DNA of 64,000 nucleotides from the IMG/VR virus record IMGVR_UViG_3300046462_000479; one strand, 5' to 3'. Origin of the DNA: a virus (taxonomy: Duplodnaviria > Heunggongvirae > Uroviricota > Caudoviricetes). Position numbers and translations under genes: made by a program. Shown one piece after another: positions 5,235 to 62,014 of this stretch. Every line of letters begins with the position of its first letter. The first letter of the stretch is position 1. Below the pieces are notes generated by a model. It ran no database searches and was not told where the DNA came from. It saw only the letters and a program-made list of their open reading frames with translations.

Positions 5235-5633
5235 CTAGCGCTTCCCTGCATCGCCTGCGGCCGCGAACTACACAACGTCGACGACATGGCTGGCAATCAG
5301 CCGTACAACGGCACCGCGTTCACGACGCATGGCCACTACGGGTCCACGATCTACGACCCGATGGACGGCCACTACCTCGAAATCAACGTATGTGACGCCT
5401 GCCTCGCACTCCATCCGGAACGGGCACTCGAAGGCCGCGACCGCAGACCCGTCATGGAAGACGGGGTCATCGTCCGATTCGAGGACGTGGAATGGCAGGA
5501 GATGCCGTGGATGCCAGATCCCGAGTCGATCGACTATGCGCTCAAGGTCACGCGCAAGGAGAGCGGCATCGACGACCTCAATCCTCTTCGCCAGATTCCA
5601 GTTCCGGAGTCTGATCCCCCAGCTGCAGCCTGA
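5226..5633 (+). CDS. Cys-rich (CIACG...CDAC) hypothetical protein, 135 aa
   Basis: ATG inside the palindrome; SD GGAAGGAG. Confidence 0.55.
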   Translation: MSRLALPCIACGRELHNVDDMAGNQPYNGTAFTTHGHYGSTIYDPMDGHYLEINVCDACLALHPERALEGRDRRPVMEDGVIVRFEDVEWQEMPWMPDPESIDYALKVTRKESGIDDLNPLRQIPVPESDPPAAA

Positions 5634-6045
5634 ACTTCACCGCGTCCGCGTTCTGGCCCGCGAACTCGATCCGGGTCGGGATGTGGTATTTCTCGGGATG
5701 GCGGCGTTCAAGCAGCCATTCCAGATGTTTGGTGTCGAACTCCTGGACCACGCCGACCAGCTGGCCGCGCTGAAAGATCGGCCGCTCGTTCGGTTCTAGC
5801 GCACGCCGGACGTTCTCGTATTCGAGAGCGTCGTCGATCATTTTTTGCGCGGCGTCGTACAAGGCCGAGAATCGTGGCGACGCTTTCCGTCGTGACTCGA
5901 CCGCGTTCGGGTGTACGCCAGCAGCCCTGGCTGCTTTGCCGATGATCGCGTACTCGTTCACGAGGGCCTCCAGGAAATCTTTCTCCCATGCTTCCGGAGG
6001 CCCTTCGTCCTCGAACAGATTTACTTCGTCTTCGGAGTGTGACAT
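5578..6045 (-). CDS. HTH protein resembling the terminase small subunit N-terminal HTH
   Basis: AIIGKAARAAGVHPNAVESRRK...ALYDAA motif; start ATG at the palindrome centre. Confidence 0.5.
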   Translation of the reverse strand: MSHSEDEVNLFEDEGPPEAWEKDFLEALVNEYAIIGKAARAAGVHPNAVESRRKASPRFSALYDAAQKMIDDALEYENVRRALEPNERPIFQRGQLVGVVQEFDTKHLEWLLERRHPEKYHIPTRIEFAGQNADAVKFRLQLGDQTPELESGEED

Positions 6046-6052
6046 GTCACAC
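6037..6052. repeat. 16-bp palindrome (supplies the ATG of the minus-strand gene)
   Basis: Perfect match. Confidence 0.9.
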
Positions 6053-6937
6053 TACTTCGGTGCGGTATCCGTTGCCGTCCCGGTAGAGGGCGTGCCGTTG
6101 TGTGCAGCGGCCGCAAACGATGTAGCCGAGCGGCCTTTCTGGTCCGTCAACGGGTACGACCTGGACCGGATATTCGCGGCCGAGCGTGTCGATCCTGGTT
6201 TCCGTGGAAGGCCTTTCCACGTCTCGTTCGATCTGGGCTCGGACAGCCTCGACTGTTTCGGGCGCAGGCTGGGCTGTTTCTTCTTGGCGCATCCTGTTCC
6301 GGATGGAGCCGACGGTCGGGTGCGACACTCCGCAAACCTCTGCGATGCGACGGTCCGAGCGCGACCAGTCGCGTTGTAGCTCTTTGCGTACGAGCGACTG
6401 TTTCTGCTCTTTGGTCAGTTGGCGTCGGTTCGCGTTCAGCGCGATCGACAGTTCGTATTCGCCTGCCTGGTCGAGGTCGGACACGAACACGACCGGGATC
6501 TCGGTCAAGCCCAACAGTTTGCTGGCCATCAGCCGGTGACGGCCGTCGATCAGCATGTGGCGGCCGATCACGATCGGCACCCTGACGCCTTCGTCCTCGA
6601 TGCTGTTGATCAGCGCCCGCTGTTCTTCTGCGCTTAGGTCAGGCAGCGGCCCCGATTGCAGCTCGATCTCGCTCCTCAGTTCCGCCAGGAGCGACGAGGC
6701 CGAGGATGGCGAGAGCCCTAGCTCGCTGGCGAGGGTAGTCAGGTTGTAGCCATCGCTCATCTCGTCCGCTAAGAGCAGTTTGATCGCCTGCGCCCTCGGG
6801 GACAACGCCTCCAAGTCCACCGTCCGGTAGTTCGTCGAAAACGTAGTCGGGGGTTCGGGAGCCGTTTCTTCCGAGAACTCGTCTGGGGCCGACGTCGACG
6901 GCTCGTTGGCTACATATCCATCGTCCGTACTGCTCAA
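6047..6937 (-). CDS. ParB-like nuclease-domain protein with C-terminal HTH (TTG start)
   Basis: PIVIGRHMLIDGRHRLMASKLLG ParB/Srx core; HTH VSHPTVGSIRNR. Confidence 0.7.
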   Translation of the reverse strand: MSSTDDGYVANEPSTSAPDEFSEETAPEPPTTFSTNYRTVDLEALSPRAQAIKLLLADEMSDGYNLTTLASELGLSPSSASSLLAELRSEIELQSGPLPDLSAEEQRALINSIEDEGVRVPIVIGRHMLIDGRHRLMASKLLGLTEIPVVFVSDLDQAGEYELSIALNANRRQLTKEQKQSLVRKELQRDWSRSDRRIAEVCGVSHPTVGSIRNRMRQEETAQPAPETVEAVRAQIERDVERPSTETRIDTLGREYPVQVVPVDGPERPLGYIVCGRCTQRHALYRDGNGYRTEVV

Positions 6938-7252: not shown

Positions 7253-7329
7253 AATGTAATGGAGGGGAGGTACGGGCTGTCGGTCAGCGGCCCGGAGAGC
7301 GGCTGCAACCCGCAACTCCCCTCCTCACA

Positions 7330-7345
7330 GTGTGACTTGTCACAC
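7330..7345. repeat. palindrome variant GTGTGACTTGTCACAC (centre TT); lies in the 5' leader, ~+75 from the promoter
   Basis: 33-bp block identical to 11411-11444. Confidence 0.85.
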
Positions 7346-7364
7346 TCCTAGCGGAAGGAACCTG

Positions 7365-7571
7365 ATGCTTGCACCAGCAGAAGCGATCGGCGTCGAGCAG
7401 ATCATCCCCTCGACCGGACCGCACGAGCAGATCCTGGTCGGCCACGAGCAGGTGGTGGCACTGCACTTCTTCGAGGCGATCGACTATGACCCGGAGTACG
7501 GTCCGGGCGCGAAGGTGTACCGGCCGGTAGGGCTGGCGGACGCAGCCACGATCAGAGGATGGTTGGCGTGA
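7365..7571 (+). CDS. hypothetical protein (68 aa)
   Basis: ATG after GGAAGGAACC. Confidence 0.5.
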   Translation: MLAPAEAIGVEQIIPSTGPHEQILVGHEQVVALHFFEAIDYDPEYGPGAKVYRPVGLADAATIRGWLA

Positions 7572-7846
7572 TGGGAGAGTTCAAGGAGCTACGTAACGAG
7601 ATTTCTGACAACCCGGCCGGGTTCGATCAGATGAAGGCGCAAGCGCTCGAACTGCTGCGCGACACGGGCGCCTACCTGTTGATGGCGAAGCAGGACAACG
7701 GGTTGCATTGTTTGGCTGCGGTCGAGCCGGGCGTGAACTCGGACGAGTTCATGCTCGGGATAATGCAGGGGATGACAGAAATCCTTGAACGAATGGAGGA
7801 TCTGAGCGAGGAAGCAAGGAGGCTTGACGATGGCCAAGAAGCCTGA
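7571..7846 (+). CDS. hypothetical protein (91 aa)
   Basis: ORF track (GTG/ATG). Confidence 0.5.
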   Translation: MGEFKELRNEISDNPAGFDQMKAQALELLRDTGAYLLMAKQDNGLHCLAAVEPGVNSDEFMLGIMQGMTEILERMEDLSEEARRLDDGQEA

Positions 7847-8036
7847 GCCGGTGCAGGGTTTCATGTTCGAGACTGTCGGGGAAGCTGACGGCCGTAACGA
7901 GACGGTCTGCAAGATCATTGAGCGGGCCACTACCGACAACTCGTTCGAGAACGGATGCGCGTTTCTTGTCGAGTTCGGGGACGGCCACCAGATGGAGGCT
8001 TTCGCGTCTGAGCTGCGACCCTGGTATCCGCTCTAA
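7830..8036 (+). CDS. hypothetical protein (68 aa)
   Basis: ORF track. Confidence 0.45.
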   Translation: MAKKPEPVQGFMFETVGEADGRNETVCKIIERATTDNSFENGCAFLVEFGDGHQMEAFASELRPWYPL

Positions 8037-8038
8037 CA

Positions 8039-8054
8039 GTGTGACATGTCACGC
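8039..8054. repeat. palindrome variant ...CACGC; its central ATG is the start of the next gene
   Basis: One mismatch. Confidence 0.85.
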
Positions 8055-8870
8055 CAATGGGGCATAAGAGAACCGGGCGACCATAAGGTCGTCTGCAAGG
8101 GTTGCGGCACCTTGTTTTACACGCGTGACGGCAAGAAGGCGTATCACTCTCCCGAATGTTCGCAAAACGACCAGAATCGGAAAAAGTCTGCGTCCAATAA
8201 AGGCAAGGCGTTCGAGTTGCGTCGCATGTCTCGCCAGTCGCGGATGCGTGGTTCGACGAGCTTGTTTGATTGGGACCTTGATCCTGACGTGACACGAGCA
8301 GATGATCCGTATGCGCGAGTGTACGATCAGCTGGTGGGGGCTGGGGATGGGACCGCGGACGTTTTGCGGCTTCTTTCCAGGGGGATCGTCTGGGGCAAGC
8401 ACGCCGAGTGTGACATGCCGGAACGGTTCGAAGACCGTCTGATGATCCGGCTGCGGTCGATGGTCGCGAAGCATTGCGGTGTTTCTGAGGTCGATTATCT
8501 GGGGAGGTCCAAGATGGAGCCAAGGCTGCCTGGCATTCAGGTGATCAAGGTCGAGGACGGGTTCGCGGAATCGGTCACTCCGCCCGTCTGCGATTTCTGC
8601 GGGGACATAGGACCCGAGTGGGAGTACGGGTGCGAAGATTTCTACATCGAGGAGATACCGTCCCCGTTCGGGGGGCGGTGTTGGGCGTCCACGGGAGAGT
8701 TCCTGGCCTGCAATGAGTGCTCGGGTCTGATCGACCGGAAGTCAAAGGCGAGCCTGCTGGTTCGGGCCGCTTTCGTTCTGCATTCCGACGAGAAGATGTT
8801 GGAGCAGTCCTCGCGGATCATGCAGGGATTCTTCGACCATATGACCGGAGAAAAGAGGCCGTTTGGCTGA
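8046..8870 (+). CDS. Zn-finger/Cys-rich hypothetical protein (274 aa)
   Basis: CKGCG...HSPEC; C-terminal CDFCGD...CNECS. Confidence 0.6.
   Translation: MSRQWGIREPGDHKVVCKGCGTLFYTRDGKKAYHSPECSQNDQNRKKSASNKGKAFELRRMSRQSRMRGSTSLFDWDLDPDVTRADDPYARVYDQLVGAGDGTADVLRLLSRGIVWGKHAECDMPERFEDRLMIRLRSMVAKHCGVSEVDYLGRSKMEPRLPGIQVIKVEDGFAESVTPPVCDFCGDIGPEWEYGCEDFYIEEIPSPFGGRCWASTGEFLACNECSGLIDRKSKASLLVRAAFVLHSDEKMLEQSSRIMQGFFDHMTGEKRPFG
8408..8417. repeat. isolated half-site GTGTGACATG inside a CDS
   Basis: Half of the palindrome only. Confidence 0.3.
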
Positions 8871-9039
8871 GCGTCAGTCACCATCTCGTGGATTAACGAA
8901 CCATCACTCAATTCGTCTCACAAAAGGCGACGAGGCATTCGTCGAGCTGATTAGGGCAGAGTTGGGTGCGGGGAAAGGAGAGGCTATCAGGACAGCCATC
9001 CGCGTGTACGCGGGCATCCTGATGCAAAAGAAAAAGTAG
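8863..9039 (+). CDS. putative ribbon-helix-helix (CopG/Arc-like) protein, ~58 aa, TTG start (unannotated)
   Basis: IRLTKGDEAFVELIRAELGAGKGEAIRTAIRVYAGIL. Confidence 0.35.
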   Translation: MAERQSPSRGLTNHHSIRLTKGDEAFVELIRAELGAGKGEAIRTAIRVYAGILMQKKK

Positions 9040-9040
9040 A

Positions 9041-9056
9041 GTGTGACATGTCACAC
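9041..9056. repeat. 16-bp palindrome
   Basis: Perfect match; the Ku GTG start is 14 nt downstream. Confidence 0.9.
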
Positions 9057-9912
9057 AGGGAGGTTCGCTGTGAAGACGATAATCAACGCGACGGTGCAGT
9101 TCGGGATGGCTGCCATCCCGGTGGCCGTTGCGTCAGCTCTGAACACGACGAACGATCCGTCGTTCAAGCTGTTGCATGAGCCGTGCCATCAGCCGGTGTC
9201 GAGGTCTGGTGGGGGCGGCTCGAACGGTGGCGGCTACTACTGCCATCACTGTGACACGTCTGCGGACGTGACGGTGCACGGTTTCGAGTACGCAAAGGGC
9301 GAGTTCGTCTGGTTCACGGACGCGGAGATGGCGAACGTGAAGCCGGACCGGGAGCCGGTGATCGTGCTGAAGAAGTTCGTGAAGGCGACGTCGATCAAGC
9401 CGGTGATGGTCGACAAGCACTACTTCTTGAAGCCGTCCGAGATGGCAGCGCTGGCTGACCCCTACGGGCAGCTGTACTCGGCGCTGGCGAAGCTGAAGGT
9501 GGCTGGTGTGGGCACGCAGACGCTGTGGGGGAAGGAGCATCCCTGTGCGATCGTGGCCAACCAGGACTACGCCTCAGGTGGGGTGCTGATGATGCTGACG
9601 CTGATGCTGGCAGAGGATCTGGTTGATCCAGACTTTGCTGCTCCGGTGCCGTCGGCGGCCCTGCGTGCGTCTGCGCAGACGGCGGTGGCCGGTCTGATCG
9701 ACGAGTTGAGGCCGGAAGATGACTTGGTGTCGGAGTCGCGTGACCGGACGAAGGACGCGATCACGGCCAAGGTCGAGGGCCGCGAGATCGCTGTCGTGAG
9801 GCCGCAGGAGACGCTGGAACCGGTGATGGATATCGGGCAGGCGTTGCAGCAGGAGATCGCGGCCCGCAAGAAGGCGTCGAAGCCGAAGCCGAAAGCGAGG
9901 GCGAAGGCATGA
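9043..9912 (+). CDS. ku: Ku-like DNA end-binding protein (the likely real start is the GTG at ~9070)
   Basis: FGMAAIPVAV...SFKLLHEPC...YFLKPSE...MLTLMLAEDLVDPDF align with the bacterial Ku core. Confidence 0.85.
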   Translation: MTCHTGRFAVKTIINATVQFGMAAIPVAVASALNTTNDPSFKLLHEPCHQPVSRSGGGGSNGGGYYCHHCDTSADVTVHGFEYAKGEFVWFTDAEMANVKPDREPVIVLKKFVKATSIKPVMVDKHYFLKPSEMAALADPYGQLYSALAKLKVAGVGTQTLWGKEHPCAIVANQDYASGGVLMMLTLMLAEDLVDPDFAAPVPSAALRASAQTAVAGLIDELRPEDDLVSESRDRTKDAITAKVEGREIAVVRPQETLEPVMDIGQALQQEIAARKKASKPKPKARAKA

Positions 9913-10262
9913 GTATCTCTTCGGGCGACATTGGTCGCCTGTCCGTCGAGCTGCAGGCCCGCTTCCCGGAAGAGGACAACGCGTCCCGTCTGGACGGCTG
10001 GCTGGCGTCAGCTGATATCGACGAGGAGGCGTTCGAGACGCTGATCCAGTCGGCAATCACCGGGTTTTTGCAGCTGTTGCAGGAACGCATCCAGAAAGGG
10101 GGTGACGAGAGGATCGAAGCAGAGGACGCCGACGGTCGCCGGATCGAGATGTTCGGGCTGGACGTCGGCAGCCTGGTCGGCAGCATCGCTTGCAACATGT
10201 TCATTCTCGGTTTCGAAACAGCGACCGAGTACGGCAAGCGTGACATGTCACACGTCGAGTAA
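9909..10262 (+). CDS. hypothetical protein (117 aa)
   Basis: ATGA overlap with ku. Confidence 0.5.
   Translation: MSISSGDIGRLSVELQARFPEEDNASRLDGWLASADIDEEAFETLIQSAITGFLQLLQERIQKGGDERIEAEDADGRRIEMFGLDVGSLVGSIACNMFILGFETATEYGKRDMSHVE
10238..10253. repeat. palindrome variant GCGTGACATGTCACAC
   Basis: One mismatch. Confidence 0.85.
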
Positions 10263-10271
10263 AGGAGAACA

Positions 10272-10607
10272 ATGGACGGTTTGATCCGTCAGGGCGACAT
10301 CATGCTCGTCCCGGTCACAGACAAGTACACGATCGGCATGGTGCGCAAGTCGGTCAAGCAGCGGAAGCGGACCGGGGAAGGTCTGATCGTTGCCGAGGGT
10401 GAGGCGACCGGACATCATCATCGGGTGCGCACCAAGGGTGTGCGGCTGGTCGAGGTCGGCGGCACCTTGTATCTGCAGGGGCCGGAGTCGAAGCTGGAGC
10501 ATGAGGAGCATGAGACGCTGACGGTCCCGAAGGGGACGCACCGGATCGTGCAGCAGCGCGAGCACGCTCCTTCTGTGCCGACCCGGCAGACGTACGTCAG
10601 GGACTAG
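10272..10607 (+). CDS. hypothetical protein (111 aa)
   Basis: SD AAAGGAGAACAATG. Confidence 0.55.
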   Translation: MDGLIRQGDIMLVPVTDKYTIGMVRKSVKQRKRTGEGLIVAEGEATGHHHRVRTKGVRLVEVGGTLYLQGPESKLEHEEHETLTVPKGTHRIVQQREHAPSVPTRQTYVRD

Positions 10608-10609
10608 CA

Positions 10610-11410
10610 GTGACGGGAAGAAGCGGGGCGGGGAAGCCTAGCTCTTCTCCGCCTCTTCCCGACAAGACGCTCGGCCGCATGATCAAGCGGCTGCGCTCGC
10701 AGTACAAGTGGCGTAACTACTGGCGTAACCCGAATGTCCGCACGTTCACGGACAGGGAGATCATGCAGGCGTTGGGGCTGGACCGGAAACGGTTCAACGC
10801 CTGTGTGCGTGCGGCGCCAGCCCATTCGGGGCGTCCATGGAACAAGGAGTCGTGTCTGGCCGCGTTCGAGAAGTTCGTGGACAAGGAGAAGCGGTGGCCA
10901 CACAAGAAGGACTTCCGGAACTGGCGGCAGACGGGGCTTCCGTACCCAGAAACGACCGACAACTGGTGCAGGGACTGGGGCAACAACGTCCGCGGATCGG
11001 TGTGGGTTGTTGACGAGTACTGCCGGAAGTATCCGCACCGGGTGACGACGATGATGGCTATGTCGATCCCGAACCTGACGACCCGCCGCAACGTGCTGCA
11101 ACGGTTGGGCGCGAAGAAGCTGTTGAAAGAAGGAGGTGGCAAAGTTGTGCAGCAGGACGATTTCGGGAAACTGTGGCGGATCGACGCGACCGACGGCGTC
11201 GACAACCGCATCCAGTTCGTCGAGGTCGTCAACAAGAGCCCACGCATAAACGAGGACACAGGCAGGGTGGTGGTCGACCGGAAAGGCAACCTGGTGTTCG
11301 ACCACTATTTCCTGCGTGTTCCTCCGGACATCCGTTCCGCGAAGGATGCCGTGGCTTGGACGGTAAGCGTTCCGGCCGAACGGTTCGTGGGTTTCGCGGC
11401 CGAATCATAA
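10610..11410 (+). CDS. hypothetical Trp-rich protein (266 aa)
   Basis: ORF track. Confidence 0.55.
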   Translation: MTGRSGAGKPSSSPPLPDKTLGRMIKRLRSQYKWRNYWRNPNVRTFTDREIMQALGLDRKRFNACVRAAPAHSGRPWNKESCLAAFEKFVDKEKRWPHKKDFRNWRQTGLPYPETTDNWCRDWGNNVRGSVWVVDEYCRKYPHRVTTMMAMSIPNLTTRRNVLQRLGAKKLLKEGGGKVVQQDDFGKLWRIDATDGVDNRIQFVEVVNKSPRINEDTGRVVVDRKGNLVFDHYFLRVPPDIRSAKDAVAWTVSVPAERFVGFAAES

Positions 11411-11413
11411 CCA

Positions 11414-11429
11414 GTGTGACTTGTCACAC
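11414..11429. repeat. palindrome variant (centre TT), with the same 33-bp block as at 7327
   Basis: Identical flank CCTAGCGGAAGGAA. Confidence 0.85.
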
Positions 11430-11450
11430 TCCTAGCGGAAGGAAACAACT

Positions 11451-11861: not shown

Positions 11862-13400
11862 GTGGCCAAAGCTAACAGCCTGGTCGCTGAGCGTTGGGCT
11901 CACGGCCTGGTCAGTAAGGGCGTGGCCGCGCACCTGTGGGGGGGCACCGTTGTCATCGACGACAGCGGTGTCCTCCACTATCACCGTAAAGGCGGTGATC
12001 GCAGGTATGCGTGGGGGCCTGTCGTGTTGGGCCGGTATCTACCTAAGTCCCGGACGGTGCTGCTGAACGGGGACGGGTTCACGGACCGGCACGCGACCGA
12101 CTGGCAGACGAATCTACGAAACGAGGTGCGCAGACAAGTTCACGCCAATCCGGACAGCAAGTATGTCCGCAATGTGGCCATCGTGCCGTTCGCTGCTTTG
12201 GAGGCGGCCGGGGTCACGGTCGACACGTTCCGTCCCATCCATGTTGTCCAGGACGAAAACGAGCAGGTGTTCCGCCGTCTTCCGCACGTCACCAAGTCGG
12301 AACTGGAGCCGATCGGCGTCCACCAGGAGAAAGACGCTAGGTGGTTGTGGCAGGGGTCGGTGGAAGGACGGCAGTACCAGTACACCGAGTTCGGCGTGTA
12401 CGGATACGTAAACACGAGGACGGGCGAGAAAACAAATGACCGTGACGTCTATGGCGGCTGGCCTCGTTCTGAGTTGAAGTGGCAGGTCGTCGCCCACAGG
12501 GAAACGAATCAGTCGTGGACGGCACGCCAGGCGGTCGGAGGGTGGGCGTGGGTGCGTTCGCTTCCCACCCAGGAGGCGTTTGCCGCGTTAGTACAGGAGC
12601 GTGTCACTGCCAATATCTCCTCGTTGCGGACGGGAAGGCCTTTGAATGTTGGTCCTCTCCCGGAAGAGCCGGGCATGTACATGATCGAGGATATCCACCA
12701 CCTCGGCGCCTGCCTGTTTTCGGCTGAGAGCGTGGATGGCGGCCGCCACAAGTTCTTGTCGGCGTTCGACGAGGCCGAGCCGCAGCAGATGTATTTCCTC
12801 GCTCAGCTTCCGGACGGGTCGGGTGCGAAAACGTATGGGGAGGCGCTGTTGGCGTTGGCTCCTCCGATCGTGCATCAGGCAAGGCTGGAGGGAAGGAACG
12901 TGTTCCGGCAGGGCGACGTGTTCGCCATCGAAACGACTATGAGCGACGGGGAGGTGTATGCGCTAGCGAAAACACGGGTCCGGCGGAACGTCGTCATGTA
13001 TGCCGACACCGTCCACCAGATGGTCGCGGTGATAAACGGGACCGGGACAGAGCCGACGGTACGAGCTGGCGAACTCAGAGAGAAGGTGGAGTGTCCGTGT
13101 AAGTGCGGGCATAAGCGGTGGATCGGCTGGGGGCCGAAAGCGAAGCGGGCCCTGTCGATCTACCGGACCGGACATACGGCCGACGAGGTGGTGGTGTCCG
13201 CGAAAGGCACCACCTACGTCAGGGGACAGATGTACCACGATCCCGGTTTGGAAGATCCGGGGCGGCGGGAGGAGCATCAGTCTGTCGTTCTCGGCAGCGG
13301 GAAGTGGTGTATCGCTGTCCGTAATACGGTTCCGCGCCAGTCGGCGCGGCGGGCCCGGCAGCAGGCCGAGGCAACTACGAGAGAGGAGACACCGGTATGA
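11862..13400 (+). CDS. large hypothetical early protein (512 aa)
   Basis: Long ORF with good composition; C-terminal CPCKCGH; no motif recognised. Confidence 0.65.
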   Translation: MAKANSLVAERWAHGLVSKGVAAHLWGGTVVIDDSGVLHYHRKGGDRRYAWGPVVLGRYLPKSRTVLLNGDGFTDRHATDWQTNLRNEVRRQVHANPDSKYVRNVAIVPFAALEAAGVTVDTFRPIHVVQDENEQVFRRLPHVTKSELEPIGVHQEKDARWLWQGSVEGRQYQYTEFGVYGYVNTRTGEKTNDRDVYGGWPRSELKWQVVAHRETNQSWTARQAVGGWAWVRSLPTQEAFAALVQERVTANISSLRTGRPLNVGPLPEEPGMYMIEDIHHLGACLFSAESVDGGRHKFLSAFDEAEPQQMYFLAQLPDGSGAKTYGEALLALAPPIVHQARLEGRNVFRQGDVFAIETTMSDGEVYALAKTRVRRNVVMYADTVHQMVAVINGTGTEPTVRAGELREKVECPCKCGHKRWIGWGPKAKRALSIYRTGHTADEVVVSAKGTTYVRGQMYHDPGLEDPGRREEHQSVVLGSGKWCIAVRNTVPRQSARRARQQAEATTREETPV

Positions 13401-13677: not shown

Positions 13678-13770
13678 TGAGTACAACCGATTGGCAAAAC
13701 TGGCTGGTGGCCGCTTCGGCTCTGGTGGTTGTGGTCATCGTGGGAGTAGTGATGTGGCGTGGACATTAAG
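13678..13770 (+). CDS. 30-aa membrane peptide (GTG start)
   Basis: VSTTDWQNWLVAASALVVVVIVGVVMWRGH. Confidence 0.3.
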
Positions 13771-14301
13771 GTGATTTCTGGCGGTCAGATCGGCGCGGAC
13801 ATTGCGGGTTTGCGGGCCGCGCATAAGGTTGGTTTGGAGACGGGCGGATGGATGCCGTACGGGTACCGGACGCTGTTGGAGCCGTTGCCTGTCGATCTGG
13901 TGGAGCGGTACGGGTTGTCTCAGACGACAACGACGGACTATCCGACGCGGACGCAGATGAACGTGGTTGGGTCGGATGCGACGATCCGGTTTGCGCATCA
14001 TTGGTATACGGCGGGGGAGCGGCTGACCCAGAACCTGCTGGTGAAGAACATGCGTCCCCGTTGGGATGTTGAGTTGCGGCAGGTTCCGGTGGAGGGGAAG
14101 CTGCGGCAGATGCGGTGGACGGTGTTCGGGTTCCCGGATCTGCAGGTTGAGGAGTTCGCTGCGGTGACGGCGGAGTGGGTGCGGGACACGTTGCCTGCGG
14201 AGGGCGGCGTGTTGAACGTGGCCGGGAACGCCGACCTGTCGATCGAGACTGTAGTGGAGGAGTTCCTAGTGTTGGTGTTCGAGCGGCTAAAGACAGTGTG
14301 A
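13759..14301 (+). CDS. SLOG-family / putative molybdenum-cofactor-carrier-like (YpsA-like) protein
   Basis: VISGGQIGADIAGLRAAHKVGLETGGWMP...DATIRF. Confidence 0.65.
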   Translation: MDIKVISGGQIGADIAGLRAAHKVGLETGGWMPYGYRTLLEPLPVDLVERYGLSQTTTTDYPTRTQMNVVGSDATIRFAHHWYTAGERLTQNLLVKNMRPRWDVELRQVPVEGKLRQMRWTVFGFPDLQVEEFAAVTAEWVRDTLPAEGGVLNVAGNADLSIETVVEEFLVLVFERLKTV

Positions 14302-15304: not shown

Positions 15305-15489
15305 GGTTTGTGGAGGACGGTGCGGTGATCGTTGTCGCCGTCTGGTGCATGTTCGGGTTCTTTTGGTTCCGTTACAGGAAGAGGAGGCAGCATCCTGACG
15401 CTTTAGAGCACATCCACGAGCTGGAAGAGCAGAACGTGGAGATCGACGAGTTCATCCACAAGATTCAAGACCGGGAGGTTCGGAAATGA
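15301..15489 (+). CDS. small membrane/coiled-coil protein (62 aa), translationally coupled to the SPFH gene
   Basis: Transmembrane segment then an acidic helix. Confidence 0.5.
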   Translation: MRFVEDGAVIVVAVWCMFGFFWFRYRKRRQHPDALEHIHELEEQNVEIDEFIHKIQDREVRK

Positions 15490-16412
15490 CTTGGATAATC
15501 CTGACGATCTTGTTTGCGATCGTCGGCGGCATCTCGTTGCTGGTGTGGTTGTTCGGAGACAAAGCTCCGGAGGGGTCGGATGAGATCAGTCCGAAGGCGT
15601 GGGGTGGGATCGCGACCGTCACCATCGGCGTGATCTGGCTGGTGATGACACTGTTTATGTCGGCGACACAGATCAGCGCCGGTCATGTCGGCGTGAAGTA
15701 TCAGTTCGGGAAGATCGTGGGGACGGTCCCTTCGGGCCTTCATGTTGTGGCACCGTGGATCAACGTGGTGTCGGCAAACACGCAGGTCCAGTCGCATACG
15801 TTCGACAACCTGACGTCGTTCTCGAAGGAGACGCAGGACGTGAACGTGACCGCGACCCTGAACTACAGCGTGAACCCGTCCGACGTGAAGAACTTGTACA
15901 CGACTGTCGGGTCGGACTGGTTCGACAAGCTGGTCGCTACCAGGGTGAACCAGTTCTTCAAGGACGAGACGGTTAAGTTTACTGCCGTAGAAATTGCTCC
16001 ACACCGCGACCAGATCCGCAAGGATGTGCGTTCTGTTCTGCGGTCTGCGTTGGCGCCGTACTCGGTGAACGTGGAGGATCTGCTGATCGACAACATTTCG
16101 TTTAGTCCTGCGTTCACGAACGCGATCCAGGACAAGCAGATCGCGACCCAGCAGGCGTTGGCTGCCCAGAACAGGGTGGCGACGGCGAAGTATAAGGCGC
16201 AGCAGATCATCGAGCAGGCGCAGGGACAGGCGAAGGCGAACCTGTTGAAGCGTCAGACGTTGACGCCGTTGCTAGTGGAGCAGAACGCGATCGACAAGCT
16301 GAACCCGAACGTGAGCGTGATCGTGGTCCCGTCGGGCGCGAACTTCATCCTGCCTGGCCTTGCTGCTGCTGCTGCAGCGTCGACGCCGACGGCTCCGACG
16401 AAGAAGCCGTAG
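15486..16412 (+). CDS. SPFH/band-7 (prohibitin/HflC-like) membrane protein
   Basis: N-terminal transmembrane segment; AGHVGVKYQFGKIVG...GLHVVAPWINVV core; C-terminal coiled coil. Confidence 0.8.
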   Translation: MTWIILTILFAIVGGISLLVWLFGDKAPEGSDEISPKAWGGIATVTIGVIWLVMTLFMSATQISAGHVGVKYQFGKIVGTVPSGLHVVAPWINVVSANTQVQSHTFDNLTSFSKETQDVNVTATLNYSVNPSDVKNLYTTVGSDWFDKLVATRVNQFFKDETVKFTAVEIAPHRDQIRKDVRSVLRSALAPYSVNVEDLLIDNISFSPAFTNAIQDKQIATQQALAAQNRVATAKYKAQQIIEQAQGQAKANLLKRQTLTPLLVEQNAIDKLNPNVSVIVVPSGANFILPGLAAAAAASTPTAPTKKP

Positions 16413-18116: not shown

Positions 18117-18461
18117 GTGGAGGGGATGGATCAGCTAAGTCTCTTGCCCGATCCAAGTCGGCCAATTAAGGGACGTCACCATACACATGCTAGGGACACA
18201 GAAGAATCTGCGGCTCAAGCTGCTGCACCGAGAGCCGGGACGGCCCGAGCGCGAGTTTTGGAACATCTTCGGCAAGCGGGTTCGTACGGAGCAACTGACT
18301 TCGAGTTGAACGAGATGTTGCTACCAGGGCGTCGCTCGGTGAGTGCGGGAACCAGACGAGCGGAGTTGATTCGCGACGGATGGCCAATCATCGACTCAAA
18401 GCGGCGTCGAGAAACTGATACCGGTACGGCTGCGATCGTATGGGTGCTCAGTGCGCCTTAG
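18117..18461 (+). CDS. hypothetical protein (114 aa)
   Basis: ORF track. Confidence 0.45.
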   Translation: MEGMDQLSLLPDPSRPIKGRHHTHARDTEESAAQAAAPRAGTARARVLEHLRQAGSYGATDFELNEMLLPGRRSVSAGTRRAELIRDGWPIIDSKRRRETDTGTAAIVWVLSAP

Positions 18462-19290
18462 CGGATGGCATGTTCCGATCGAGCATCTGTCCGCGAGTGC
18501 GATCGGGATGCTGGTCCAGTGTCCTGAGCAGTTCAGGCTCAGAAGGGTGTTGAAGATCCCGGAGTCGATGGGCGTGGACAGGTTCGTCGGCATCGTCGAC
18601 CACGGCACGCACGCGGAGAACTTCAGGCAGAAGATCGCGACCGACCAGGACCTGCAGCAGCAGACGATGTGGGAGATCTTCGACAACACCTGGGACCAGA
18701 CGATCCTGCAAGAAGGCGAGCCGGAGTGGAGCAGTCCGGTCGAGCAGACGAAGACGCTGGGTCAGCTGATGGTGGACACCTACCACGCTCAGGTGTCGCC
18801 GACGGTGCATCCGATCAAGGTGGAGGAACGGTTCGAGCAGACCTTCAAGAACATGCCGATCCCGATCGTCGGCTACCCGGACGTCGAGACTCGGTCGCAG
18901 ATCATCGAACGGAAAACGTCGGCGTCGAAGCTATCGAAGCCGAAGTCGAAGTGGGTGGTGCAGGGCCGGATCTACAGCATGGTGTACGCGAAGCCGGTCG
19001 AGTACCACATCATCACGAAACAGAAGACTCCGCAGGTCGTGACGGCAGAGACAGCACCTGCAATGTGTTTACACCCTGAGCACGCAGACTCGACGTTGCA
19101 GGTGATCGAGCAGGCGTTGTTCAGCCTGAACGACTACTGGACACGCTACGGTCCCGACCATCCCTGGCCGACCACCGGCCTCTACCACGACTGGCTGTGC
19201 AACTACTGCTTTGCCGGTCCCAGCTACGGCGGCTTCTGTGTCGCCTGGAAAGGACAGACGAATGAGCAAGATCGCAAGCACGAAGTGTGA
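18451..19290 (+). CDS. Cas4/RecB-family PD-(D/E)xK exonuclease with a 4-Cys cluster
   Basis: GYPDVE...IERK; N-terminal QCPEQF plus C-terminal CNYCFAGPSYGGFC. Confidence 0.65.
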   Translation: MRLSGWHVPIEHLSASAIGMLVQCPEQFRLRRVLKIPESMGVDRFVGIVDHGTHAENFRQKIATDQDLQQQTMWEIFDNTWDQTILQEGEPEWSSPVEQTKTLGQLMVDTYHAQVSPTVHPIKVEERFEQTFKNMPIPIVGYPDVETRSQIIERKTSASKLSKPKSKWVVQGRIYSMVYAKPVEYHIITKQKTPQVVTAETAPAMCLHPEHADSTLQVIEQALFSLNDYWTRYGPDHPWPTTGLYHDWLCNYCFAGPSYGGFCVAWKGQTNEQDRKHEV

Positions 19291-48635: not shown

Positions 48636-48980
48636 CTAGGTCGCCTGTTCTGTGGTTTCGATGATCAGTGGACCTTCGTAGCCTTGCGCCTGGTAGTCGT
48701 ACTTGTAGACCTCGACCGTGTAGGTGCCCGCTACGGGCGCGGACGCGGTGATCGTCCCGCACGTGTGAACACCCGCAACTGTCCATCTCTGCTCGGTCAG
48801 GTCGGGCGCAACAACGACAACGTCAAGGTAACGGCCTCCAAAGTTGCAGAGGGTGATGTCGAACGTTCCCCCGGCCACGGTCGGGTTGGGGCTAGTGGTG
48901 ACGGTCGCGTTCGTCGCGTCCGCGGACGCGACGACCACCGCGGCAACTAAAGCCGCGCAGATGAGCAGAAGCTTCTTCAC
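48636..48980 (-). CDS. small secreted Ig-like protein (signal peptide; 114 aa)
   Basis: MKKLLLICAALVAAVVVASA signal peptide. Confidence 0.55.
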   Translation of the reverse strand: MKKLLLICAALVAAVVVASADATNATVTTSPNPTVAGGTFDITLCNFGGRYLDVVVVAPDLTEQRWTVAGVHTCGTITASAPVAGTYTVEVYKYDYQAQGYEGPLIIETTEQAT

Positions 48981-48989
48981 GGTTCCTCC

Positions 48990-50024
48990 TTACGGGGACG
49001 GTGGCGTGAGGACCTGCATCCTCGACCAGGGGATCGGCCCGAGCTGACGCGCGTACGGGTAGGCGGGACTGTAGGCCGGGTTTGTGATCGGCAGCGTGAC
49101 GCCGACCGCTCCCCAGGAGGTCGCCTGGCCGCCCTGGTTGACGGCGTCGAGCGCGTAGATGGCGACGTTTGAGCCGAGGTCGCGGAGGAACATTCCGTAC
49201 TGCTGGAGCGCGTAACACATCAGCTTCTCGAGGGTCGGCAGGATGAGCGCGTCGACGTTGACGGTCGGGTCGAGGCGGAGCCAGGTTCCGAGGCCGAGGC
49301 CGGTGCCGCCGGGCGCCTGCCCGTTTGCTGGATACCGGGTCGGGCTTCCGACGTTCGCCATCGAGAACACGAGCGGATGCAGGATCGCGCCGCCCGCGAT
49401 GTCGGCGGGCGTGATCAGCCCCTCGATGAGCGGGAACCGGGCCGCGTTCGAGTTGCCGGGCGCGGGCTCCTGTACGGCTCCGGGAGCGAACGACGTGCCG
49501 CCCTGGCACGACCAGACCGATCCGTTGAAGCTGGCCTCCCAGAGGTCGGACTGGCGGCTGTGGACAGGGTCCTGGACGGTGAGGTGGTGGTCGCTGTTGT
49601 GGCCCGGCTGGGTGCCGACGGGGATGTAGACGGACGCGTCGAACGGGCCGCCGCCCGAGATGGCGTAGGCGGGCGAGCCGCCATCGGTGTCGGCGCGGGC
49701 GACGGACGCCTCGAAGTAGTAGCCGCCGCCGTTGGTGGCGAGCCATGTTGAGATCATCGCCGCCGAGTTCGGGTCTATGGCTGCCTGGGTCGCGTCCCAC
49801 GCCCACGGGCCGCTAGACGGCGGGGGCGGGACAGGCGCAGGTGCTGTCGGTGCAACCAGTTGACCGGCTTCGGCGCGTGCGGCGGCGATCAGCGTGAGCG
49901 CGTTCGCCCAATTCGTTCCCGGAGGAGGCGTCGTCCATTTCCGGTTGATGTAGCCGACCGTCGTCTGCTTCAAGGCTGCAACAGCCTGGTCGAGTTTTGC
50001 TTGAACGTCCTGCGGGGATGCCAT
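48990..50024 (-). CDS. structural-module protein, paralog of 46392..47273 (344 aa)
   Basis: See the paralog. Confidence 0.55.
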   Translation of the reverse strand: MASPQDVQAKLDQAVAALKQTTVGYINRKWTTPPPGTNWANALTLIAAARAEAGQLVAPTAPAPVPPPPSSGPWAWDATQAAIDPNSAAMISTWLATNGGGYYFEASVARADTDGGSPAYAISGGGPFDASVYIPVGTQPGHNSDHHLTVQDPVHSRQSDLWEASFNGSVWSCQGGTSFAPGAVQEPAPGNSNAARFPLIEGLITPADIAGGAILHPLVFSMANVGSPTRYPANGQAPGGTGLGLGTWLRLDPTVNVDALILPTLEKLMCYALQQYGMFLRDLGSNVAIYALDAVNQGGQATSWGAVGVTLPITNPAYSPAYPYARQLGPIPWSRMQVLTPPSP

Positions 50025-50767
50025 TACTCCTCATCTTCAGGTATCTCTGCTGTTTCTATCGCCACCTGGAAGCCGTCGGCGATCGTGAGCCCAGTCATCC
50101 ACCGGTCCTCCTTCTCCGACCAGGACGGCCACACTGTCGTGCCGACAAGATGGCCTAGCCGTGCTGCCGTGTCGACATGGATCTTGAAGCCAGCTTCGGT
50201 GGCGCGGATGCAGAAGTTGACGTCCTCGCTGATTCTTCGTCCTTGGCTGTCGCGTCCGAGTTCGAACCAGGGAGGGTCGATGGTCTCGATTACTGATCTG
50301 CGGATCAGCATCCCGGACGAGCCCGAGAACTGGACCTCGACCAGCTCGTCGGGACCGTACAGGCTGAGGTCCATGAAGTTGTCGTCGACGGTCGGGACGG
50401 GAAGGAACGGCTGCTGGCGGCGGAGGCAGAGCGGGGCAGCAATGTCGACATTGCGGGTGAGGAGCTGCACGAGTATGTCGGGCCGGAACGAGTGGTCATC
50501 GTCGATGAACCAGATCCATTCGCCGTGGATCTCCGCACATGCCTGATTGCGCAGCTCGGAGATGTCGGAACCGATCTTCGGCTTGACAACCGACCCGGCG
50601 GGGATCTGGAGTCCCATCAGGTTTAGCCAGAAGAGGGTGTAGCGGGCCGCCTCGTTGGCGAGCATGACGACGGTTCCAGGCTGGTTCTCCGGCTGGTTCA
50701 TCAGCACAGCCATCTCTTCCAATTGGTCGATCCTCATCAGCGTCCTTTCATGCGTGCATGTCGGCAA
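50024..50767 (-). CDS. putative GT-A-fold glycosyltransferase (DxD: WIWFIDDDH)
   Basis: DxD motif and EDVNFCI; paralogous to 50748..51440. Confidence 0.55.
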   Translation of the reverse strand: MPTCTHERTLMRIDQLEEMAVLMNQPENQPGTVVMLANEAARYTLFWLNLMGLQIPAGSVVKPKIGSDISELRNQACAEIHGEWIWFIDDDHSFRPDILVQLLTRNVDIAAPLCLRRQQPFLPVPTVDDNFMDLSLYGPDELVEVQFSGSSGMLIRRSVIETIDPPWFELGRDSQGRRISEDVNFCIRATEAGFKIHVDTAARLGHLVGTTVWPSWSEKEDRWMTGLTIADGFQVAIETAEIPEDEE

Positions 50768-51440
50768 AAACCCAGCCTGACTTGGGAGGAATCGTGAGCT
50801 GGTAGCCGCCCATCATCGAGAACCCGTAGGTCCAGCCGTCAGGCTCACGGACAGGCCAGACGCAGGACGTGCAGGAATGTCCGAGATACGCGTCCAGGTC
50901 ACACCAGATCCGGAGCCCGGCTTCGCGCGCCTTGATGCAGAAGTTCACGTCCTCTCCTACCCGGTTAGTGATGCCGGTCCCCGTCTCGAACCATGGTTCC
51001 GGAATGTCGTCCAGAACGCTCAGACGGATCAGCAGACCGGCGGCACCGGAAGCGGCCAGCTCGACCAGGCCTCCGTCCGGGTAGTCGTCCAGGTTCAGGC
51101 GGGCCGTCTCGCCGTCTCCTATGTCGATCCAGTTGACGGGACGGTAGGGCGGGTTCCGCATCAGACAGAGCGGGATAACGATGTCGAGGTCGTGGGCGAG
51201 CAGCTTCCGCAGCAGATCAGGAGACCAGACATGGTCGTCTCCCATCAGCCACACCCATTCCTTGCCTCTGTCCAGCGCCTCCTGCAGGAGCGCGTTCTGG
51301 CCGTCAGCGAGGTCCCAGCCGTACCTGAACTTCGTCTCCCACCCGTCCGGCATGTCCGTCTCCGCAAGCGACCCGGCAAAGGTGCTGAAGCGTGCGGACT
51401 CTTGCGCGATCACTCCGATCAGGCCGCCTGCAGGATGCAC
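50748..51440 (-). CDS. putative GT-A-fold glycosyltransferase (WVWLMGDDH)
   Basis: Paralog of the preceding gene. Confidence 0.55.
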   Translation of the reverse strand: MHPAGGLIGVIAQESARFSTFAGSLAETDMPDGWETKFRYGWDLADGQNALLQEALDRGKEWVWLMGDDHVWSPDLLRKLLAHDLDIVIPLCLMRNPPYRPVNWIDIGDGETARLNLDDYPDGGLVELAASGAAGLLIRLSVLDDIPEPWFETGTGITNRVGEDVNFCIKAREAGLRIWCDLDAYLGHSCTSCVWPVREPDGWTYGFSMMGGYQLTIPPKSGWVFADMHA

Positions 51441-60697: not shown

Positions 60698-61023
60698 GCG
60701 CTGTGAGTATCGCCCTCCGGGCGGATGCTGGTGATCACGCGGACCAGTCCCCCGTGTTTATCGACCAGATACATGCGTTTCAGGTCGGCCGTCCAGACGA
60801 ATCTCATCGTCCGGTCGCGTTCGTTGCCGTTGCGGCGGCCGCGAACACGGTTGCGGCTGGATACCGCCCAGGACGGCTGCCGGGTCGAGTAGCGGCCCGA
60901 GTCGAGCGCCTCGTTTACTTCCTGGGCAACAAGCAGACGCAGGTAGCTGCCGGACGCCATCTCTTCCGGGAACCGCTCCCGAAACTGGTCGACGGCATGG
61001 TGGGTTACCTCAACCGGCCTCAT
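60694..61023 (-). CDS. hypothetical protein (109 aa)
   Basis: ORF track. Confidence 0.45.
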   Translation of the reverse strand: MRPVEVTHHAVDQFRERFPEEMASGSYLRLLVAQEVNEALDSGRYSTRQPSWAVSSRNRVRGRRNGNERDRTMRFVWTADLKRMYLVDKHGGLVRVITSIRPEGDTHSA

Positions 61024-62014
61024 CGAGCACGCTTTTCGCCCTCGACTGTGCCGTGCGGGCCTCCCGCACGAACGCTTCCAGCTCTTCCGGGTCTGACGTT
61101 TCTAGCGCCTGTTTGGCCCGCTCGCTCACTGTCCGCAGTTCTGCTTTCGTCATCGTTTCCAGTGGCGGCATGATCGTGAAGCACTCAATGAGCGCCTGGT
61201 TGGTCTGGGCGATGATGTCCAGGTATTCGCCCGCACGGTCGCCGACCTCGACCAGACCGTCGAATCCGTCCACGACACCGGCGAGAACGTCGAGCAGGTC
61301 GCGCAGTTCTTCTTGCGGGTCGGGCGGAACAGGCAGACATGAGGTCAGAAACGATTCCGTCTGCATGAACTTGTGAATGTCGTCGGCGTACAGTGTTTCG
61401 CTTTGGCCTTTGTCGATCACCCAGACGGACGCTTTGGTGAAGTGGTGGTCGAAGTCGTACCGGTAGAGGTCGCCGTATTGGCGGGCGACACGGATCATCT
61501 CTCTGACGCTGTAGGTGTGGTGGATGAACTCGCCTACCTGTTCGATTGTCTGGCCTTCCCAGGAGGGACGGATGAACCAGCTGACCACAACGAATTCGCG
61601 TGCCGCCCGACACAGGTTGTGGAGCGCCCTTTCTCCGTCTTCGACGTGTTCGAGCAGATGGCGGACGTAGACGATGTCGGCTGTCTCTAGTTCGTCCATG
61701 TCGAACAGGTCGACGACGTCGAAGGTCAGGTCCGGGTACTGCTCTTTGCAGTAGTTGACGAACCGAGGCGTGAAGTCGTAGCCGGTGTAGCCGATCCTGA
61801 CCGCTTCTCCCGGTTCGAAGCCTTTGATTTCGATGCCGGTGCCGCATCCAACTTCGAGGAAGCTGGACGGGCGGGCGCGGCTGACGATCAGCCGGAGGAT
61901 GCGCCTGTCGGGCGCGTCGGGTCCCTGTCCTATCCCCCAGCGGCCAAGTTCTGTTTCATCGGGCTGGCTGAGGAACGTTTCTGCGTCGAGTTTCGACCAG
62001 GGCGTGTTAGGCAT
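61010..62014 (-). CDS. class I SAM-dependent methyltransferase
   Basis: FLEVGCGTGIE motif I; DIVYVRHLLEHV. Confidence 0.7.
   Translation of the reverse strand: MPNTPWSKLDAETFLSQPDETELGRWGIGQGPDAPDRRILRLIVSRARPSSFLEVGCGTGIEIKGFEPGEAVRIGYTGYDFTPRFVNYCKEQYPDLTFDVVDLFDMDELETADIVYVRHLLEHVEDGERALHNLCRAAREFVVVSWFIRPSWEGQTIEQVGEFIHHTYSVREMIRVARQYGDLYRYDFDHHFTKASVWVIDKGQSETLYADDIHKFMQTESFLTSCLPVPPDPQEELRDLLDVLAGVVDGFDGLVEVGDRAGEYLDIIAQTNQALIECFTIMPPLETMTKAELRTVSERAKQALETSDPEELEAFVREARTAQSRAKSVLDEAG

Follow-up and report, generated by a model that had tools for sequence, protein, structure and literature searches.

A diverged bacterial-type Ku gene in an uncultured tailed soil phage and its relatives

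The DNA analyzed here, referred to as the window, is a stretch of 64 kb from the 77,418-bp genome of an uncultured tailed phage known from soil metagenomes. An open reading frame of 289 codons is located on its plus strand at 9043-9912. The Ku gene contained in it is the fifth predicted gene of a plus-strand run (7332-28653), and a sigma-70-like promoter match is found at the head of this run. The features of the locus are listed below, with residues in the numbering of the 280-aa product.

5578-6937, minus strand: 155-aa gene and ParB_N/HTH gene, divergent from the Ku operon and kept beside it in related phage contigs
7223-7252, plus strand: sigma-70-like promoter TTGATC-18-TATACT, a match to the consensus only
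7328-7360, plus strand: left copy of a perfect 33-bp direct repeat, containing a palindrome and a ribosome-binding site
8863-9039, plus strand: gene for a basic 58-aa protein (pI 10.3), directly 5' of Ku, with weak homologs in L001
9041-9056: perfect 16-bp palindrome GTGTGACATGTCACAC, directly 5' of the Ku ribosome-binding site, one of 35 copies in the genome
9058-9063, plus strand: ribosome-binding site GGGAGG, 6 nt 5' of GTG 9070
9070-9912, plus strand: Ku gene, 280 aa, placed by profiles, fold, ribosome-binding site and independent gene calls
Up to about residue 195 of Ku: core beta-barrel
9175-9252, plus strand: candidate zinc-ribbon (bridge) region of Ku with H36, C39, C58 and C61
About residues 196-265 of Ku: conserved minimal C-terminus
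9865-9909, plus strand: Lys/Arg-rich tail of Ku, RKKASKPKPKARAKA, residues 266-280
9909-10262, plus strand: gene for an acidic 117-aa protein (pI 4.3), its ATG overlapping the Ku stop codon (ATGA)
11412-11444, plus strand: right copy of the perfect 33-bp direct repeat
11862-13400, plus strand: conserved 512-aa gene that accompanies Ku in relatives
18451-19290, plus strand: PD-(D/E)XK nuclease gene in the same early run, conserved in relatives

The initial annotation assigned the whole of 9043-9912 to the gene. The open reading frame is present as described, but its start is not: judged by the ribosome-binding site and the gene calls, translation probably begins at GTG 9070 instead of GTG 9043, which gives 280 aa. 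This 280-aa product was called independently in the Logan and JGI assemblies, and it carries the JGI label 'DNA end-binding protein Ku'. The 27 bases from 9043 to 9070 are a regulatory-looking palindrome and not coding sequence, and the palindrome at 9041-9056 is a candidate operator or regulatory site.

The gene had been named a Ku homolog, and this name is borne out by significant similarity in every type of profile search. Pfam PF02735 Ku (Ku70/Ku80 beta-barrel) matched residues 20-194 of the 289-aa open reading frame with E=1.3e-23 and 84.3 bits against a cut-off of 25. It was the only family returned by the Pfam scan, in which Phage_Mu_Gam (PF07352) had no match even at E<=1. PHROG 4873, 'Ku-like DNA end binding', covered nearly the whole protein with E=6e-22. 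The NCBIfam model TIGR02772 Ku_bact was aligned over positions 2-258 of 259 with E=2e-35. Its score of 122.4 bits is below the 150-bit equivalog cut-off, and the window Ku is therefore regarded as a diverged Ku and is not filed as a cellular equivalog. In the PDB sequence search, the sole matches were the bacterial Ku chains 8v53, 9i91 and 9vnq, with E values from 4e-16 (8v53) to 8e-11. When a family profile of 89 homologs was used, PDB bacterial Ku was matched at E of about 1e-81 (best 2e-81).

The structure prediction agrees with the profiles. The AlphaFold2 monomer model of the window Ku (pLDDT 86, pTM 0.74) has the Ku fold, a beta-barrel with a bridge. The best Foldseek hits of this model were M. 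tuberculosis Ku (9ig8 and 9i91), the bacterial Ku homodimer 8v53 and B. subtilis Ku 9vnq, with target-normalized TM-scores of 0.75-0.85, and eukaryotic Ku70/80 came next. By profile, fold, motifs and C-terminal layout, the gene product is a single-domain bacterial-type Ku, and it is almost certainly a functional one. From homology, two copies of it should form a ring that slides onto the ends of double-stranded DNA.

The motifs quoted in the initial annotation (FG..IPV, YFL.P and ML.LM..DL.DPDF) are present approximately, as QFGMAAIPV, HYFLKP and MMLTLMLAEDLVDPDF. The N-terminal FG...IPV strand and the core motifs were also found when the protein was aligned with the Ku proteins of M. tuberculosis, Corndog, Omega and other bacteria. 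The C-terminal motifs DLVS..R.R...LI.AK.E and DL..AL..S match the bacterial consensus and are conserved in the clade of the window Ku, and 17 of 18 clade members have a tail rich in Lys and Arg. The protein has both the bacterial-specific minimal C-terminus and a variable, basic extended C-terminus. Ligation by LigD is stimulated mainly by the minimal C-terminus in M. tuberculosis Ku, whose basic extended C-terminus helps LigD binding and regulates DNA binding (PMC9638933). As judged from its sequence, the window Ku looks complete and LigD-competent.

Within the bridge region, residues H36, C39, C58 and C61 are candidate metal-chelating residues of a zinc ribbon. H36 and C58 do not vary among 16 diverse Ku proteins; within the clade, C39 and C61 hardly vary either. 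We take this His/Cys region to be the atypical Ku zinc ribbon of Krishna & Aravind 2010. The two zinc half-sites are separated by a Gly/Ser-rich insertion, SRSGGGGSNGGGYY, which is clade-specific and variable across the phage clade. Model confidence is lower at the zinc-ribbon region (pLDDT 64-77).

The ATGA overlap suggests that Ku and the acidic 117-aa gene are translationally coupled. A homolog of the 117-aa gene comes after Ku in L001, and an overlapping gene of about equal size is located 3' of Ku in L012 and L103. In the sister subclade, the Ku-coupled gene is a calcineurin-like metallophosphoesterase, which replaces the acidic 117-aa gene. Neither the 117-aa gene nor the 58-aa gene 5' of Ku had a family match. 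The 512-aa protein was modeled with a pLDDT of 90; its model had no recognizable fold in the PDB, and the protein was neither a ligase nor an AEP by any test run. The PD-(D/E)XK nuclease has a possible function in recombination or end processing. The perfect 33-bp repeats flank a 4.1-kb segment that bears Ku.

A further observation concerns the repeats of this genome. An 18-bp palindrome, AGTGTGACATGTCACACT, occurs in 35 copies, almost all of them intergenic and several placed 15-65 nt 5' of a start codon. A related phage contig uses the variant palindrome GCGTTACATGTAACGC.

That the gene is phage-encoded, as first proposed, is confirmed by its surroundings. On the minus strand, at about 30.3-64 kb, the window contains genes for the portal, a protease fused to a histidine-phosphatase domain, the major head protein, large tail proteins and a 1513-aa tape-measure candidate. 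Several glycosyltransferase and methyltransferase genes are interspersed among these structural genes. The large terminase (TerL) is located just outside the window in the rebuilt part of the genome (PHROG_2, E=4e-32). The plus strand from 7.3 to 28.7 kb consists mostly of small early genes, which include Ku, the PD-(D/E)XK nuclease, an AAA ATPase, ParB-like proteins, a Band_7 protein and a cpYpsA SLOG protein. No tRNAs were found in the window, no lysis gene was recognized, and an Rfam scan of the window and L008 gave no match. The Band_7 homologs gave no useful clue to the host, almost all of them being unnamed metagenomic proteins.

The open reading frames of the window and the rebuilt 13.4 kb, many of them small and without any family match, were scanned for genes of DNA joining and synthesis. 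No integrase, ligase, LigD-type polymerase or phosphoesterase, AEP or DNA polymerase was found among them. The combination of a phage Ku with no phage ligase, which characterizes Corndog and Omega, is thus found in the open reading frames scanned. Because the scan of the phage genome shows no ligase or LigD-like gene, any joining promoted by this Ku must use a host ligase.

The genome was completed from independent assemblies. One Logan contig carries both window edges, and together with a second contig it allowed the missing 13,418 bp to be rebuilt, giving a circle of 77,418 bp. A JGI contig of 77,466 bp, from a separate assembly, reads across the junction at window position 1 and confirms the order. 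Circular closure was obtained in both the Logan and the JGI assemblies. In Logan, the Ku region is a separate contig of 4,111 bp, which is 100% identical to window 7331-11441. This region was split off because of the perfect 33-bp repeat at 7328-7360 and 11412-11444. Logan assemblies presumably use a k-mer of 31, and the 33-bp repeat is longer than this. The JGI assembly reads through both 33-bp copies. The break of the JGI contig is at window 48,882, and that of a 31-kb Logan contig is at 48,931. A perfect 20-bp palindrome inside a tail-region gene (48,913-48,932) either contains the break or is no more than about 30 bp away from it in both cases. Every assembly break is on or near a repeat or palindrome, and none marks a defined terminus. 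The circle is equally compatible with cos ends (as joined intracellular DNA), headful packaging and direct terminal repeats. A non-coding stretch at L008 8857-9794, some 4-6 kb 5' of TerL, is a candidate region for the ends.

Two other sources of information on the genome ends were considered and rejected. In each of the six long related contigs examined, the distance between the Ku gene and a contig end is 2-12 kb. These contig ends were not accepted as physical termini, since the four contigs compared with the window genome end at non-homologous positions; direct inspection of four contig ends placed at least two of them at local repeats or palindromes. Similarly, TerL was uninformative for the packaging or end type. 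It is at most 29% identical to the TerLs of isolate phages, with best matches in Tunturiibacter, Thermus and haloarchaeal viruses, and it is unrelated to the Corndog TerL (E=0.33).

The relationship of the window Ku to other Ku proteins was further analyzed. Its identity is 24% to Corndog Ku, 22% to Omega Ku and 26% to M. tuberculosis Ku. In a neighbor-joining tree (computed without support values), it is placed in a clade apart from the Corndog and Omega Ku proteins. The clear alignment to bacterial Ku that was first described is correct, but no kinship with the Corndog and Omega proteins goes with it. The window Ku is an ortholog of neither Corndog gp87 nor Omega gp206, and for this reason function is not simply transferable from these two phages. 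Omega-type Ku is about 50% and Corndog-type Ku about 34% identical to M. tuberculosis Ku. When the genomes of 185,579 species, one for each, were scanned for Ku, the maximum identity was 31%, with hits in mixed phyla, and neither a prophage copy nor a recent cellular Ku donor was visible among them.

The statement that only a few phages carry Ku needs an update. Among 50,697 phage records, Corndog gp87 found 87, of which 86 are Mycobacterium phages, and M. tuberculosis Ku found 88, of which 87 are Mycobacterium phages including Omegavirus WXIN. Both Corndog-like (about 70 kb) and Omega-like (about 110 kb) genomes are included. A Ku of Streptomyces phage BillNye is also present in OrthoDB (PMC11936186). 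A tblastn search of the phage collection with the window Ku at E<=1e-5 returned WXIN and one fecal fragment only, with no isolate relative, and the collection contained no near-identical DNA. Nothing was matched in IMG/VR with the Ku protein, the clade alignment or an exact 36-mer of the window edge. An exact 40-mer of the Ku gene had no match among JGI metagenome contigs, but JGI contigs that encode the same protein were found by a different route.

Relatives were found in metagenomes. An exhaustive search of 1.84 billion metagenomic cluster representatives gave 24 matches at E<=1e-30 and 398 at E<=1e-10, and the clade of the window Ku comprises about 24 clusters at 50% identity. The closer relatives are 36-69% identical and are located on metagenomic contigs of 33-74 kb with small phage-like genes. 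All six relatives examined are on syntenic or phage-like contigs, and the four contigs compared with the window genome are syntenic with window positions of about 5.6-22 kb. The relatives keep part or the whole of a gene set that consists of the 155-aa gene, the ParB-like gene, Ku itself, the 512-aa gene and the PD-(D/E)XK nuclease, and they also carry RusA. In the six related contigs, the gene calls over 6-10 kb around Ku, or as far as the contig end, include no ligase. The retention of Ku at 36-69% identity across a diverse syntenic phage family implies selection. The separate clade, the low identity to cellular Ku and the phage-like contexts of the relatives together indicate an independent, phage-maintained Ku lineage.

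The best-supported reading of its function is the Corndog and Omega model, in which the phage Ku bridges the genome ends and a host ligase joins them; we consider this about an even call. That circularization of the genome through the host ligase is the main role is held with slightly less confidence, just short of even. The model is favored by the LigD-competent appearance of the protein, the lack of a ligase among the open reading frames scanned, the retention of Ku in a diverse phage family and the Corndog and Omega precedent. The unrelated TerL, the separate Ku clade, the TIGR02772 score below the equivalog cut-off and the action of host NHEJ against phages in mycobacteria count against it. 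The phage Ku, made early or carried in the virion, would load onto both ends of the linear genome after injection. It would shield the ends from host exonucleases and bridge them. The minimal C-terminus and the basic tail would then recruit and stimulate the host ligase, most likely LigD, and the sealed ends would yield a circle prior to replication. The cos overhangs of about 4 nt and the dependence on host LigD that the initial annotation predicted are an analogy from two mycobacteriophage lineages, which the present data neither support nor refute. The assemblies also fit headful or terminally redundant DNA that circularizes by recombination, as well as cos ends. The metallophosphoesterase of the sister subclade and the PD-(D/E)XK nuclease hint at end processing or recombination over simple cos sealing.

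Several other functions were weighed against circularization. Mu Gam is a Ku relative that a phage uses for end protection, and the window Ku might similarly act in this way only, capping injected or replicating linear DNA against exonucleases of the RecBCD, AddAB or AdnAB type. We regard this as unlikely. The circular assembly without defined ends is compatible with headful packaging, where circularization by Ku would be superfluous, and the PD-(D/E)XK nuclease together with the RusA of the relatives resembles a recombination module with an end protector. However, the similarity of the protein is to Ku rather than to Gam, and no annealase was recognized, the 208-aa neighbor having no match. 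The minimal C-terminus and basic tail, which act on LigD in M. tuberculosis Ku, are retained (PMC9638933), and these parts would not obviously be needed for plain end-capping. A further, improbable reading is that the phage-specific Ku has no part in circularization at cos ends. The phage would then have permuted or redundant ends, and Ku would sense DNA ends for an end-processing module that works independently of the host. The coupled gene, which encodes the acidic 117-aa protein here and the metallophosphoesterase in the sister subclade, would supply the partner of Ku, and the expanded zinc-ribbon loop would be adapted to this partner and not to LigD.

Repair of breaks as a counter-defense is also rather improbable. 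Here, Ku with host LigD or LigA would reseal restriction or CRISPR cuts, with illegitimate recombination and mosaicism as by-products. Mu Gam promotes NHEJ with the E. coli ligase according to Bhattacharyya 2018, as cited in PMC8136500, and phages with recent gene transfers include a disproportionately high share of Ku carriers (PMC8136500). Mycobacteriophages can use host NHEJ and homologous recombination for genome repair (PMC12848934), and the DNA methyltransferase-like genes of the phage make restriction pressure plausible. On the other hand, the repair of restriction cuts by end joining is prone to errors and, for a compact genome, usually costly, and the persistence of Ku in the clade fits a core step of the life cycle at least equally well. 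Host NHEJ can itself act against phages in mycobacteria: in M. smegmatis, phage SWU1 is restricted by the Ku and LigD of the host, which apparently act at the cos site (PMC12848934). A phage Ku could therefore be imagined to compete with host Ku or to sequester LigD, preventing error-prone joining at the phage ends. The window Ku is highly diverged from all bacterial Ku found (<=31% identity), as would suit such interference, but the LigD-stimulating C-terminal motifs are kept, which argues for cooperation and not blockade. This speculative reading is very unlikely.

Annotation pipelines already name this gene Ku; what is new is the lineage. The concept of a phage Ku dates from 2006. To our knowledge, phage-encoded Ku has been studied in two mycobacteriophage lineages only, where it explains how genomes with 4-nt ends are circularized with host LigD. 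The present data show that a Ku without a close cellular relative has also been acquired and retained by soil phages of about 70-80 kb, which form an unrelated, uncultured family outside the Mycobacterium phages. If the ends of these genomes are 4-nt cos ends, very short cohesive ends can be predicted as a rule from the presence of Ku in a genome, and the phage use of host NHEJ reaches beyond Mycobacterium. If the ends are permuted, a second role for phage Ku is indicated, such as end protection or repair. The main value of the finding is that existing read sets could show whether the rule that Ku implies 4-nt cos ends generalizes.

The window Ku was compared with the known systems. It resembles phage Mu Gam as a phage-encoded protein of the Ku superfamily that is expected to bind DNA ends. 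Gam is much shorter than the window Ku and lacks the bacterial Ku C-terminal region, and the window Ku has no match to the Gam Pfam family. According to work cited in PMC8136500, Mu Gam protects ends and can promote joining with the host ligase.

Corndog gp87 (Cluster O) and Omega gp206 (Cluster J) are similar to the window Ku in being single-domain Ku proteins of long-tailed, ligase-less phages. As in the window phage, their Ku is placed among small early genes, in a long run opposite in direction to the structural genes. In Corndog and Omega, Ku belongs to an operon that heads inward from the right genome end, and the layout of the window phage is similar. Both of these Ku-bearing mycobacteriophage lineages have 4-nt 3' overhangs (PMC4351075, PMC3706429), and both phages infect M. 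smegmatis, whereas the window phage is known from assemblies alone. Corndog and Omega circularize at cos via host LigD, as reported by Pitcher 2006 in the citation of PMC12848934. Corndog is also similar in that genes for glycosyltransferases and methyltransferases are located next to its portal gene, and its genome contains genes of the ParB-like and AAA-ATPase types and a dyad-symmetric repeat at dispersed sites (PMC4351075). The repeats differ in sequence, with AGTGTGACATGTCACACT in the window phage and TGTTCGGNNNCCGAACA in Corndog, and the 17-bp dyad repeats of Cluster O are unrelated to the window palindrome. The common architecture had suggested a distant relative of Cluster O, but this was rejected, since Ku is the only credible Corndog match. 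Essentially no genes besides Ku are common to Corndog and the window phage, and their TerLs are unrelated. Cluster J Ku differs by its Lsr2-like C-terminus (PMC3706429), which is absent from the window Ku.

The bacterial NHEJ Ku proteins, such as M. tuberculosis Rv0937c and B. subtilis YkoV (9i91, 9ig8, 9vnq), are like the window Ku in fold, length class and motifs. The three-part layout of core, minimal C-terminus and basic tail is also the same. The window gene differs from them in that it is encoded by a phage with no adjacent ligD, and its zinc-ribbon loop is expanded and rich in Gly and Ser.

A dispersed palindrome with the core GTGACATGTCAC and the consensus AGTGTGACATGTCACACT was found in 26 copies in the window, versus 0.24 expected by chance, and in 35 copies in the rebuilt 77.4-kb genome. 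Examples are listed by window position.
421, 1387, 1827, 2419, 2819, 8041: palindrome sites
9043, 10240, 14298, 21848, 23622, 59242: further palindrome sites

Almost all copies are intergenic, and several precede a start codon by 15-65 nt, the RBS lying between palindrome and start. The same core is present in three copies in L001, a contig of a related phage with its own Ku, and a variant form, GCGTTACATGTAACGC, is present in another such contig, L103. A dimeric regulator probably uses the dispersed palindrome as an operator-like site.

The palindrome and an RBS also make up a perfect 33-bp direct repeat on both sides of Ku.
7328-7360 and 11412-11444: perfect 33-bp direct repeat

The 4.1-kb segment between the two repeats holds Ku and six neighbouring genes. 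Because of this repeat, the Logan assemblies are split into 4.1-kb and 73.4-kb contigs. The repeat pair is a ready recombination substrate for deletion of the Ku segment. Other contig ends lie on or near a different palindrome within a tail-region gene; one Logan contig terminates on it, at 48,931, and one JGI contig terminates at 48,882, about 30 bp away.
48913-48932: perfect 20-bp palindrome GTCGCGTCCGCGGACGCGAC

The genes that follow Ku in this phage and in a sister subclade (contigs L011 and L102), and two further genes of the early run, are as follows.
9909-10262 (+): acidic 117-aa protein (pI 4.3), ATGA overlap with Ku
L011 8973-9638 and L102 6816-7484: calcineurin-like metallophosphoesterase (PF00149), sister subclade
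13759-14301 (+): circularly permuted YpsA SLOG-family protein
15486-16412 (+): Band_7/SPFH (HflC-like) protein

The 117-aa gene is predicted from the ATGA overlap to be translationally coupled to Ku, and a homolog is located after Ku in L001. No family match was obtained for this protein; it may be a partner of Ku or a regulator. The metallophosphoesterase gene of the sister subclade is directly 3' of Ku, overlapping the Ku stop in L102, and its product might serve as a partner in end processing. Metagenomic homologs of the Band_7 protein are numerous (45-69% identity), and several are carried by contigs of 80-370 kb.

One candidate for an origin or a packaging region lies some 4-5 kb upstream of the large terminase gene TerL, in the sequence that was rebuilt beyond the window.
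L008 8857-9794: non-coding stretch of about 940 bp

In this stretch, a C/A-rich arm with roughly 10-bp CACACGGCC repeats precedes a G/T-rich arm in which TGGTATCTTGTGGTG repeats occur; the GC skew changes sign, from -0.4 to +0.5, and inverted segments are present in the arms. A lone 314-aa gene separates it from a second non-coding stretch of about 960 bp, which carries four palindrome copies.

Glycosyltransferase genes are unusually numerous in the structural module (at least five, of families 2 and 6). Together with methyltransferase genes, they are sited upstream of the portal and also among the head and tail genes. A fusion protein adjoining the portal combines two domains, a His_Phos_1 histidine phosphatase (E=7e-28) and a prohead serine protease of the XkdF type (E=6e-25).
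50024-51440, 61010-63742 and L007 8075-10001: glycosyltransferase and methyltransferase genes
57027-59231 (-): 734-aa fusion protein

The glycosyltransferase and methyltransferase gene set suggests virion glycosylation or methylation, as likewise proposed for the Ku-encoding mycobacteriophage Corndog. The 17-bp repeat of Cluster O, to which Corndog belongs, is analogous to the dispersed palindrome of the present phage, although the two are unrelated in sequence.
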